Source: Clostridiales bacterium (lineage in GTDB: Bacteria; Bacillota; Clostridia; Peptostreptococcales; NVVX01). From it: 64,000 nucleotides of DNA. The translations under genes were made by a program, and so were the position numbers. Under the pieces are notes generated by a model. That model saw only the letters and a list, made by a program, of their open reading frames with translations, was not told the origin of the DNA and did no database searches. Positions 55,465 through 57,066 of this stretch are shown in pieces (within the stretch, counting starts at the first letter, position 1; the number at the start of each line of letters is the position of its first letter). The stretch is taken from contig JAJOKP010000094.1 in assembly GCA_021129775.1 (NCBI GenBank), forward strand, positions 4,066 through 68,065. The letters are read 5' to 3'.

Positions 55465-57066
55465 TTATACGGATTTTTTCACTTCTGTGAGTGCTTCTTC
55501 AACGCTAAGCTCCAGACGTTCTTTTGAGTTTCTATATTTCAACTCGACGATACCATCGCCAGCTAATTTTCCAGTAGTAATTCGCACAGGTATCCCTAAC
55601 AAGTCTGAATCTTTAAATTTTGAGCCAGTACTCCCTTTTCGGTCGTCTATTAGCACTTTAAACTCTTTAATCTCTAATTTCTTACTTAATTGTTTAGCTA
55701 ATTGCATTTGCTCTTCTTTCCTAATATTAGGCACAAGCACATGCACATCGAATACTGATGCATCTTTTTTAAGAACAAATCCATCATCATCCTTGTTATG
55801 GTCAAGATAGGTTGTCAAAAGGCGATACATGTCTATTGAGCCGAGTTCAACAATTGGGCGTTGCTCTTTCATTTGATTATCCTTGTATTTAATATCCATA
55901 TTTTCACTAAGTACTTTTTTATATGATGTTAATTCAACAACGACATAACCTTCTCTTGCTGTGATATTCCCACCACACTTACAGCAAATATCCCCTGAAA
56001 GTATATAAGAAAAATTACCGACATGATGCGCTTTATAGTCTCTACCGTACACAACATTTTTTAAATGATAATCTACTCTATTTGCACCTGTCACCATTGC
56101 TTGGCCTTTTGTTACCTCTTCATCAGCTAAGATAATTACATTTTTCAGCCCAATTGGTCCAGCAAAACCAACAGTCGTTCCTGCGGCGTTTAGCACATCT
56201 AAATCGTTTACTAAGTTGATCTCATGAGGTAGCACGCTAAAAAAGCGAGCAACTTTTTTAATATTTAACTCTCTATTTCCACTAAGAACTATCGCAACTG
56301 TCTTTAGTTTTCCATGCAAAGGCACTTGCACTAATAGTGTCTTTAAAAGAGTTTTCGCATTAATAGACATAAATCTTTCTAAATCAGCAATTGTCTTAAT
56401 ATTTGGGGTGTGTATTTCTTCGGGCGTTTCATCTGTTGTTGCTAGCACTTTGCCTATCATCCAACTAGCATTATGTTGGTCGCTGCAGTAGTCGCAAGTA
56501 TCACATTGATAAAAAACCTCATCACCATATTCGGATGGAACCCAGTACCCTTCCTTGCTTGTTTCTGTATTGCTACTAATCAGTAGGCTTTTCTCGAAGG
56601 AGATATTTAATTCTTGCCCAAATTCAAATAACTCTCTCCATAGAGCTGATTTTTTTTCCTGAAAATCTATATCACTATGACTGATTAATTGAAACCCTTT
56701 AATAGGAGTGGACTTGCTTTTTATAAGCCCTAATTTCACACTGTAATTGTGACGTCTTTTTAATCCATTGCTTTGAATGTACAGAGGCAAATCTTTATAA
56801 GAGACAATATCAGATCTTAATTGTGTTAACAATTCTTTCGCATCATAATTTAAGGTACTTACTTCTTGAAATGCGCTATGACTTAGCAAAGATGTCAATT
56901 TGTTCTCTATTATTTTATATAGAGCATAACCGTAGGGCATTAAAGTGTAATCTCCAATGCCATTTTTCTTCAACATTCCAGCTCTAAACATTAAGTGTTG
57001 AGTTTGCATTTTACCTTCGAAAGGCGACTGTCTTAACGTTTTAATATGTATATTTGATTGTTTCAT
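55465..57066 (-). CDS. Prolyl-tRNA synthetase paralog (bacterial type with INS domain), catalytic motifs degenerate
   Basis: End-to-end collinear with bacterial ProRS (N-terminus, INS block, anticodon-binding block). Motif 2, the GIEVGHIF block and motif 3 are unrecognisable, and ~30 aa around GPTHEE are absent. Intact ORF with a GGAGG RBS. Confidence 0.8.
   Translation of the reverse strand: [533 protein letters not shown]

Follow-up and report, generated by a model that had tools for sequence, protein, structure and literature searches.

The DNA window analysed here, a 64-kb stretch of the 120.7-kb contig JAJOKP010000094.1 from a metagenome-assembled genome (MAG) of a Clostridiales bacterium, carries on its reverse strand a gene for a protein that resembles bacterial prolyl-tRNA synthetase (ProRS) over its whole length and that combines an eroded class-II catalytic domain with a preserved INS editing domain and a preserved anticodon-binding domain (ABD). 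The open reading frame (ORF) starts with an ATG, comprises 1602 nt and has no internal stop codons; its product is deposited as NCBI protein MCD5414713.1 / LR001_06915 with the label 'hypothetical protein'. A previous inspection of the DNA, made from the letters alone and referred to here as the sequence-only reading, had described an uninterrupted 533-aa ORF collinear with bacterial-type ProRS. Both points were confirmed, the collinearity with phmmer against the PDB, where the protein aligned end to end with the ProRS of S. aureus and E. faecalis (E = 2e-55 and 5e-43, respectively), about 28 residues of the query (~49-76) taking the place of about 62 residues of ProRS (49-110).

The profile searches with PF00587, PF04073 and PF03129 gave a match for the INS and anticodon-binding domains and a sub-threshold one only for the class-II core. 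The Pfam family tRNA_edit (PF04073) matched residues 220-338 (E = 8e-18; 65.1 bits against a gathering score of 25.5) and HGTP_anticodon (PF03129) residues 441-531 (E = 2e-16; 60.4 bits against 21), while the class-II core tRNA-synt_2b (PF00587) was represented by a 42-residue fragment, from residue 383 to 424, which at 22.7 bits did not reach its gathering score of 29.3. The NCBIfam equivalogs for bacterial proS, NF006625 and TIGR00409, scored 271.4 against 558 bits and 187.8 against 306.7 bits, that is under half and about 60% of the two cutoffs. Scores were also below the cutoffs of the YbaK equivalogs TIGR00011 (23.1 against 153 bits, in a weak match spanning residues 233-323) and NF007951 (17.6 against 243 bits).

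The erosion of the catalytic domain was measured on a MAFFT alignment of 118 sequences, in which 96 canonical ProRS and 22 degenerate sequences were compared, with the 116 columns in which the canonical enzymes show at least 95% invariance taken as reference. Residue numbers of E. coli refer to its ProS sequence, with the register checked at nine published positions. The N-terminal catalytic part keeps 17 of the 58 canonical invariant columns (29%) and the C-terminal part 7 of 21 (33%), so that 24 of 79 are kept in total. A deletion of 33 reference columns lies before and into the GPTHEE motif, where about 30 residues had been reckoned missing by eye, and the strand that reads GIEVGHIF in canonical ProRS reads GYVVVELT in the query. 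Lost or replaced are T109 and E111 of GPTHEE, E142, R151, F155, the GIEVGH strand, C443 and the glycines of motif 3. All the motif strings quoted in the sequence-only reading were reproduced in the alignment, and its description of eroded class-II motifs is right for motif 2, GIEVGH and motif 3, but does not extend to the arginines of motifs 2 and 3, which are both in place (E. coli R140 and R450, corresponding to R105 and R415 of the query). The erosion seen in the alignment is therefore severe but not total. The retention of only 29-33% of the catalytic invariants supports the proposal, already advanced from the sequence, that the prolyl-adenylate chemistry is probably lost, and we consider the protein very probably aminoacylation-dead.

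As had been anticipated for both the editing pocket and the ABD, the INS domain keeps 14 of 14 canonical invariant columns and the ABD 16 of 19 (84%), with the substitutions Y491S, G498E and R509S (reference numbering) accounting for the three that are lost. The INS blocks TP..KT, KTLL, GFAGPIG and GAN..YH and the ABD block DDR...G are conserved in the alignment. Residues T220, I226, L229 and K242 of the query correspond to T257, I263, L266 and K279 of E. coli ProS, the stretch G300-F-A-G-P304 forms the GXXXP loop, and D315 and H334 are the counterparts of D350 and H369; I263 and L266, which we take to be residues of the alanine pocket, are both unchanged. The signature composed of K242, the GXXXP loop and H334 is invariant in the 22 degenerate sequences as well as in the 96 canonical ProRS.

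The INS domain is flanked by a Cys knuckle, CxxCxY(C/A) ... C(P/C)xCG, encoded at window positions 56491-56505 and 55969-55986. Its first half comprises C188, C191 and C194; its second half (C361, C363, C364 and C366) lies in the C-terminal catalytic remnant. Across 80 degenerate and canonical clostridial and Paenibacillus ProRS sequences there is no variation at C188, C191 and C361, and conservation of C364 is at least 90%. The knuckle, presumably absent from E. coli ProS, probably binds a structural zinc where INS joins the rest of the protein, at its base. We had considered whether the Cys-rich segments CxxCxYC...CCxCG might be peculiar to this protein, and dismissed the idea because canonical clostridial and Paenibacillus ProRS share the knuckle.

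The protein had been taken for an isolated oddity in a decaying region, and this did not hold, as it belongs to a large conserved family. In a word-indexed search it fell into a clade of 16 sequence clusters (clade A, the query included), the other 15 members of which are 529-537 aa long, 40-57% identical to it and of the same architecture; the shorter relatives recovered were those of clade B (508-511 aa) and the sequences P0060 and P0061, and canonical ProRS were only ~26-33% identical to the query. Clade B, P0060 and P0061 show the same pattern of eroded core and intact INS and ABD as clade A. With a profile built from the 22 degenerate sequences we then searched 1.84 billion cluster representatives, and the best 145 usable matches were assessed for a degenerate pattern, defined as a full-length ProRS frame with less than 60% of the catalytic invariants and most INS and ABD invariants kept. 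At least 72 further clusters at 50% identity fit this pattern (72 of the 145 best usable matches), with 79-100% of the invariants retained in INS and 68-100% in the ABD, and a sample of their motif blocks was confirmed by eye; the query itself has fractions of 0.29 and 0.33 for the two catalytic parts, 1.00 for INS and 0.84 for ABD. The size of the deletion in the GPTHEE region varies between lineages, and the residues of the INS catalytic signature are invariant over all clades.

Some members, from the cultured organisms Caloramator sp. E03, Clostridium amazonitimonense and C. simiarum, carry the RefSeq name 'proline--tRNA ligase', and the family also includes proteins of a Candidatus Petromonas MAG and of Eremiobacterota MAGs. 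In a crude neighbour-joining tree of the INS and ABD columns, clades A and B stand together, the query grouping with clade A as it does by sequence in general, and the remaining members are scattered in many groups among canonical sequences. This hints at a repeated independent degeneration of ProRS, but the tree is too weak a basis to tell such a history from poor resolution. A stretch of ~409 aa in a Candidatus Izimaplasma MAG (L026, positions 10001-11227), 36% identical in its best segment to query residues 1-526, may represent a further shortened ProRS-like form outside Clostridia.

Mean column identity within clade A is 70%, and the invariant motifs specific to this clade in the dead catalytic domain include SPFEG, MPYG and R105. 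Pairwise identity within the clade is highest in the ABD (0.69) and INS (0.65) and lowest in the segment after motif 2 (0.36), an order that is reversed in canonical ProRS (motif-2 region 0.72, INS 0.50, ABD 0.50). For the closest clade pair with DNA available, whose proteins are 83% identical, the nonsynonymous rate (dN) is 0.07 in the ABD, 0.10 in INS and 0.11-0.16 in the catalytic remnants; the ratio to the synonymous rate (dN/dS) is about 0.06 or less, a value to be read as an upper bound only, synonymous sites being saturated (proportion of synonymous differences ~0.7). The most variable segment is that of residues 187-215, between the N-terminal remnant and INS, with dN 0.31 in the P0004/P0006 pair. 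Selection uniformly relaxed over all domains, which would have pointed to a decaying gene, was thus not what we observed: as estimated from these sequences, purifying selection is strong throughout and strongest on INS and ABD, and the degenerate ProRS family is in all likelihood functional and selected.

An AlphaFold2 model computed with an 80-sequence alignment has a mean pLDDT of 92.8, a pTM of 0.89 and no disordered segments, the N-terminal catalytic remnant being mostly above 90. As the best match of this model Foldseek returned the E. faecalis ProRS 2J3L (TM-score 0.92; root-mean-square deviation 2.5 A), followed by other bacterial ProRS structures, so that the predicted fold is that of a full ProRS. 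On the strength of the model confidence and of this match, the gutted catalytic domain is predicted to be still a compact scaffold that keeps INS and ABD in their canonical geometry.

In the five other clade A contexts that we read, the pseudo-ProRS gene is followed on the same strand, after 12-25 nt, by prdR and then by the D-proline reductase operon, with the order prdR, prdCAHBDEF downstream; this linkage spans clade A members that are only ~38-40% identical to one another. At the locus L001, PrdR, PrdC, PrdA, PrdD and the proline racemase score above their NCBIfam equivalog cutoffs (PrdR 845 against 795 bits), PrdB is called short at its selenocysteine codon and an ORF of the size of PrdH is present. 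Divergently upstream of the prd-linked clade A genes there is a conserved protein of 456-490 aa (L001 8434-9804, L003 8348-9820, L033 8427-9800, L002 326-1696), with no match in Pfam and, for the L001 copy, none in NCBIfam either, whose gene may share a regulatory region with the clade A gene. In L009 a tetrahydrofolate (THF) riboswitch (3875-3967; 75.5 bits) precedes the S component of an energy-coupling factor (ECF) transporter just upstream of the clade A gene, and an ECF S component is found a few kb upstream of it in L001 and L003 also.

Clade B genes were found immediately downstream of a 480-aa, INS-less proS of the archaeal/eukaryal type in three distinct contexts (four loci, L010-L013), within the neighbourhood ispD-ispF-proS-[pseudo-ProRS]-gltX-cysS, where the archaeal-type proS has a T-box of its own. 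No T-box was found upstream of any degenerate ProRS gene that we examined. Co-regulation of the clade B genes with the adjacent proS through this T-box was considered and, in its simple form, rejected in view of a strong intergenic terminator in L011. P0060 lies in the same housekeeping neighbourhood of aminoacyl-tRNA synthetase (aaRS) genes. In Caloramator sp. E03 (CP040093.1; L037 8001-9674) a 557-aa member fills the ancestral slot ispD-ispF-[proS]-gltX-cysS without a T-box; it keeps about half of the catalytic invariants, with motif 2 partly intact and GPTHEE, GIEVGH and motif 3 lost, and has the appearance of a halfway step in this decay, its RefSeq name being likely a mis-annotation. In Candidatus Petromonas no archaeal-type proS was found within 6 kb of the degenerate gene, and the two probably lie on the same 43.7-kb contig. 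The 480-aa INS-less enzyme is the ProRS of Alkaliphilus, Natronincola, Serpentinicella, Geosporobacter, Tepidibacter and C. difficile.

The features of the window locus are collected in Table 1. The GGAGG ribosome-binding site and the lack of a T-box leader noticed in the sequence-only reading are confirmed, no T-box and no other Rfam family having been found in the 64-kb window; the leader from the promoter match would be ~30 nt long, which leaves no room for a T-box before the ProRS-like gene. The gene had been credited with its own promoter, and a site can indeed be located, but promoter-like matches around the gene are no more frequent in the consensus scan than expected from shuffled sequence. 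Similarly, the hairpin 3' of the downstream gene is real but moderate, rather than a strong terminator, and is not among the terminator calls of the consensus scan. The gap of 31 nt to this gene, of the PF04199 'putative cyclase' family, is correct if the latter starts with GTG and becomes 37 nt with the ATG start called on metagenome contigs; its score against the arylformamidase equivalog is 77.6 bits, below the cutoff of 223.

Table 1. Features of the ProRS-like gene and its surroundings, in window coordinates.
Feature	Position	Strand	Evidence and remarks
Complete ProRS-like gene, 533 aa + stop	55465..57066	-	ORF list, exact-sequence look-up, Pfam/NCBIfam/PDB matches
N-terminal class-II catalytic remnant, residues 1-186	56509..57066	-	GPTHEE block deleted, motif 2 eroded, R105 kept
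First half of Cys knuckle (C188, C191, C194) and variable linker into INS, residues 187-215	56422..56508	-	
INS editing domain, residues 216-345	56032..56421	-	Pfam PF04073; 14/14 canonical invariants
C-terminal catalytic remnant, residues 346-435	55762..56031	-	GIEVGH -> GYVVVE, motif-3 glycines gone, R415 kept
HGTP-type anticodon-binding domain (ABD), residues 436-533	55468..55761	-	Pfam PF03129
GGAGG ribosome-binding site of ProRS-like gene	57079..57083	-	12 nt before ATG; read from sequence
Sigma-70-like promoter match, TTCACA-17-TATAGT	57100..57128	-	Consensus scan
PF04199 'putative cyclase' family gene, downstream of ProRS-like gene	54741..55433	-	Pfam E = 1.6e-32
Terminator-like hairpin, dG -11.8 kcal/mol, then U6, 3' of cyclase gene	54668..54701	-	Sequence and ViennaRNA fold

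Upstream of the ProRS-like gene and divergent from it are a small hypothetical gene, murG and a pyruvate carboxylase gene, and three metagenome contigs, 99.8-99.97% identical to the window, share this layout with the cyclase gene after the ProRS-like gene. No prd genes and no proS are present in the 64-kb window. A functional pairing of the ProRS-like and cyclase genes, for which a two-gene operon had been proposed, is not supported outside this organism: the relatives are linked to prdR and proline reductase instead, and the cyclase gene was not seen in the other family contexts read. Neighbouring proteins of the window cluster with Alkaliphilus MAGs. Elsewhere in the window, a block at 29173-32763 encoding a class-III aminotransferase, a 3-keto-5-aminohexanoate cleavage enzyme (Kce) and the A and B subunits of a CoA-transferase resembles a lysine-fermentation module, and the Kce cluster ties the MAG to Alkaliphilus. 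Between 46900 and 53500 there are truncated-looking ORFs, namely a C5 DNA-methyltransferase fragment (47435-48022; 195 aa) and fragments of ABC-transporter ATPases (50465-50902 and 52872-53471), for which real decay and MAG assembly errors are both possible. The pyruvate carboxylase is a single ORF of 1155 aa at 59012-62479 and is split in three genes on the 99.8%-identical contig L004 (2267-5694), a difference that reflects frameshift or assembly differences.

The retention of INS, ABD and the ProRS frame, together with the occurrence of INS-less ProRS beside the gene or in the genomes of relatives, makes a trans-acting Ala-tRNA(Pro) deacylase the best explanation, and with moderate confidence we propose that the protein is an aminoacylation-dead, anticodon-guided trans-editing factor. 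An anticodon-guided trans-editing factor was also the candidate function in the sequence-only reading, and the retention pattern, the fold, the selection and the clade B context support it. The cis-acting INS domain has no intrinsic tRNA recognition and relies on the ABD reading G35/G36, changes in the acceptor stem being inconsequential for its catalysis (PMC3973320; PMC11295145); INS and ABD on a ProRS frame should therefore be sufficient in principle. The superfamily lysine is strictly conserved and needed for deacylation (PMC10164551), the K279A substitution abolishes post-transfer editing and is the standard editing-dead ProRS (PMC3973320), and the K / GXXXP / H signature defines ProXp-ala and INS proteins (bioRxiv 10.1101/2020.09.11.293571).

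According to this proposal, the protein would be a pseudo-synthetase descended from a bacterial-type ProRS, with a class-II site unable to bind either proline or ATP. The ABD would grip G35/G36 of tRNA(Pro), the gutted catalytic domain would act as a rigid spacer and probably as a dimer interface, and INS would hydrolyse Ala-tRNA(Pro) delivered in trans, the mischarged tRNA presumably coming from the real ProRS of the host, which in this lineage is of the INS-less archaeal/eukaryal type. The protein might thus serve as a free-standing 'second sieve' for proline codons in which, as with cis-INS, the anticodon decides which tRNA is taken, in contrast to the acceptor-stem choice of single-domain ProXp-ala. 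In evolutionary terms, an archaeal-type ProRS would have taken over charging, and the resident bacterial-type enzyme would have been kept for proofreading while its synthetic site decayed. As to the linkage with prd genes, a heavy consumption of proline may lower the Pro/Ala ratio at ProRS. PrdX, which we take to be the ProXp-ala of C. sticklandii, offers a possible parallel for the prd linkage of clade A. It is listed among the proteins of the proline-reductase cluster (PMC10564238), and the ProRS of C. sticklandii has no functional INS, its ProXp-ala being the second sieve (PMC10164551).

Several observations weigh against this proposal. The motif-2 arginine is present in 16 of 16 clade A members, in a motif 2 remodelled to be lysine-rich, which suggests that the face of the former active site has kept some task, such as holding the acceptor end of the tRNA or a ligand, and is not a pure spacer. 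Most clade A members lack the otherwise invariant ABD arginine R509, and the loss of Y491 and G498 in the query, besides R509, makes its predicted binding of the G35/G36 anticodon less certain. A regulatory function, too, would be compatible with the close and old association with prdR. In clade B, the terminator between proS and the pseudo-ProRS gene of L011 (9944-9963; an 8-bp stem with seven GC pairs, followed by T5) implies that the two are not simply co-transcribed. Other objections concern the window copy, which alone among the clade A members seen has no prdR beside it, with the cyclase gene following it instead, likewise on the three near-identical contigs. At 9 of 131 clade-invariant positions it is the one sequence that departs from the rest, mostly by conservative changes; R262S and D264N fall in the RGDRE segment of INS, conserved in nearly all ProRS INS domains, and G468E in the ABD. 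The catalytic ProRS of this MAG was not located among the ten candidate clusters from the search with archaeal-type ProRS, none of which carried accessions of this assembly, and the genome scan covered species representatives, to which this genome does not belong. The INS-less partner is thus inferred for this genome at the level of the lineage, from Alkaliphilus and relatives.

The deviations of the window copy would be explained if it were an incipient pseudogene, displaced from the prd locus and drifting without function, and the truncated-looking ABC ATPase and C5-methyltransferase ORFs nearby would fit the same picture; the only DNA copies on which selection on the window lineage can be measured are nearly identical to it, with one nonsynonymous (K19E) and no synonymous differences, too few to gauge selection. 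We regard this as very unlikely, given that the ORF is unbroken with a conserved N-terminus and a ribosome-binding site, that 122 of the 131 clade invariants and every canonical INS invariant are kept, that the prd-linked P0014 deviates at a similar count (6 of 128 sites), that the AlphaFold2 model is uniformly confident and that the same allele recurs in three independent metagenomes. As far as can be read from its sequence, the window copy shows no sign of pseudogenisation. A working though divergent prolyl-tRNA synthetase is what the RefSeq and JGI name 'proline--tRNA ligase' of several members implies, in line with the full-length collinearity, the ProRS fold and the retained motif-2 and motif-3 arginines; we judge it extremely unlikely in view of the 33 deleted columns, with most of GPTHEE among them, of the loss of E142, R151, F155, GIEVGH and the motif-3 glycines, and of proS equivalog scores far below the cutoffs. 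Moreover, the true proS genes nearby in relatives have a T-box that the degenerate genes lack, and the clade B members stand beside a bona fide ProRS.

To our knowledge, the sensing mechanism of PrdR is not established. The protein could be a tRNA(Pro)-binding regulator or sensor that reads the charging state or the abundance of tRNA(Pro) and modulates PrdR and Stickland proline reduction, with hydrolysis secondary or absent: outside the window the clade A gene abuts a prdR whose identity is secured by the equivalog score, the clade-specific conserved surface of the dead catalytic domain could be a protein-protein or ligand site, and a response of PrdR to D-proline in the cell has been reported (PMC11229817). 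Yet a mere binder would not need the INS catalytic signature that is invariant in all clades, no regulator is found in the housekeeping aaRS neighbourhoods of the clade B genes, of P0060 and of the Caloramator member, the window copy has no adjacent prdR, and the deletion of the proline-binding residues speaks against sensing of free proline through the old site, so that we hold such a regulator to be rather unlikely. Trans-editing of a different substrate, that is Cys-, Ser-, aminobutyryl (Abu)- or D-Pro-tRNA(Pro), is also unlikely, if marginally less so. INS-superfamily members with very similar active sites differ in aminoacyl specificity (PMC11295145), alanine editing alone offers no obvious explanation for the recurrent link to the prd locus, which in the relatives generates D-proline through the PrdF racemase, and the window copy carries R262S and D264N in INS; on the other hand, the Ala-pocket residues I263, L266 and H369 and the catalytic K279 are identical in all clades to those of Ala-specific INS, and the His whose removal admits Pro in ProXp-ala (bioRxiv 10.1101/2020.09.11.293571) is invariant in the degenerate family. 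A more speculative thought, to which we give little credence, is that the pseudo-ProRS is a checkpoint between translation and Stickland metabolism that would hold tRNA(Pro) with its ABD, examine the 3' end in the INS pocket and report charging or mischarging to the sigma-54 activator PrdR, so as to throttle proline reduction before the decoding of proline suffers or, in a variant, that it clears D-Pro-tRNA(Pro) derived from PrdF.

Compared with the bacterial ProRS that carry INS (E. faecalis 2J3L, S. aureus 5ZNJ, E. coli ProS), the protein has the same domain order, fold, INS residues and ABD core, shares the Cys knuckle of clostridial ProRS and presumably brings the CCA end into INS in the same way, anchored by the anticodon, whereas it lacks GPTHEE, most of motifs 2 and 3 and the residues of the proline pocket and ATP site, so that its substrate must come in trans. 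HisZ is another class-II synthetase paralog that has lost its aminoacylation residues; it serves a metabolic enzyme as regulatory subunit and is devoid of an editing domain, unlike our protein, which appears to retain a hydrolytic domain with intact active-site residues. ProXp-ala proteins are about 160-170 aa long. The K / GXXXP / H signature of ProXp-ala and PrdX (C. crescentus, C. sticklandii) is the same as in the query, for which we propose a similar reaction and role, but their single-domain architecture is not that of a 533-aa protein with a ProRS frame and an HGTP_anticodon domain; the protein descends from the cis-INS of a full ProRS, its nearest full-length relatives being ProRS and not ProXp-ala. 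ProXp-ala reads C1:G72/A73 in the acceptor stem (PMC3973320; PMC10164551), whereas the query would be expected, from its ABD, to read the anticodon. YbaK, a Cys-tRNA(Pro) deacylase, shares the INS fold and the conserved Lys, but is single-domain, lacks tRNA specificity and works in complex with ProRS (PMC3973320).

The closest conceptual precedent may be the crenarchaeal pair ThrRS-cat/ThrRS-ed, in which one gene charges without editing and a second deacylates without charging (PMC7916415), a logic similar to that proposed here, and ThrRS-ed also retains an anticodon-binding domain (PMC11295145). ThrRS-ed has nevertheless an unrelated editing fold, acts on Ser-tRNA(Thr) and is archaeal, and the two ThrRS halves come from the split of one gene, while the ProRS case would join an archaeal-type catalytic enzyme to a decayed bacterial-type one. 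The free-standing editors of the INS superfamily, of which eight families are counted, are portrayed as proteins of one domain that recognise either the acceptor stem or no part of the tRNA (PMC11295145). The contrast with these single-domain homologs had been drawn already in the sequence-only reading, and the ProRS frame and ABD bear it out; the multi-domain architecture and the predicted mode of tRNA selection would be new for the superfamily. No description of a full-length degenerate ProRS paralog was found in the full-text literature, a coverage outside which most subscription papers fall.

If the proposal is true, the family would represent a third solution to Ala-for-Pro mistranslation and the first ProRS counterpart of ThrRS-cat/ThrRS-ed. 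The route of the CCA end to INS has been called poorly understood (PMC11295145), and a natural 'aminoacylation-null' ProRS would show how this end reaches INS without a working synthetic site. Inventories of aaRS and lists of ProRS-inhibitor targets for Clostridia, in which members bear labels such as 'proline--tRNA ligase', 'YbaK/EbsC family protein' or 'hypothetical protein', may count a dead enzyme. Proofreading would be tied to the proline-consuming Stickland metabolism that is important in C. difficile-like anaerobes, and the replacement of a bacterial ProRS by an INS-less archaeal-type enzyme would repeatedly turn the old synthetase into an anticodon-guided editor.

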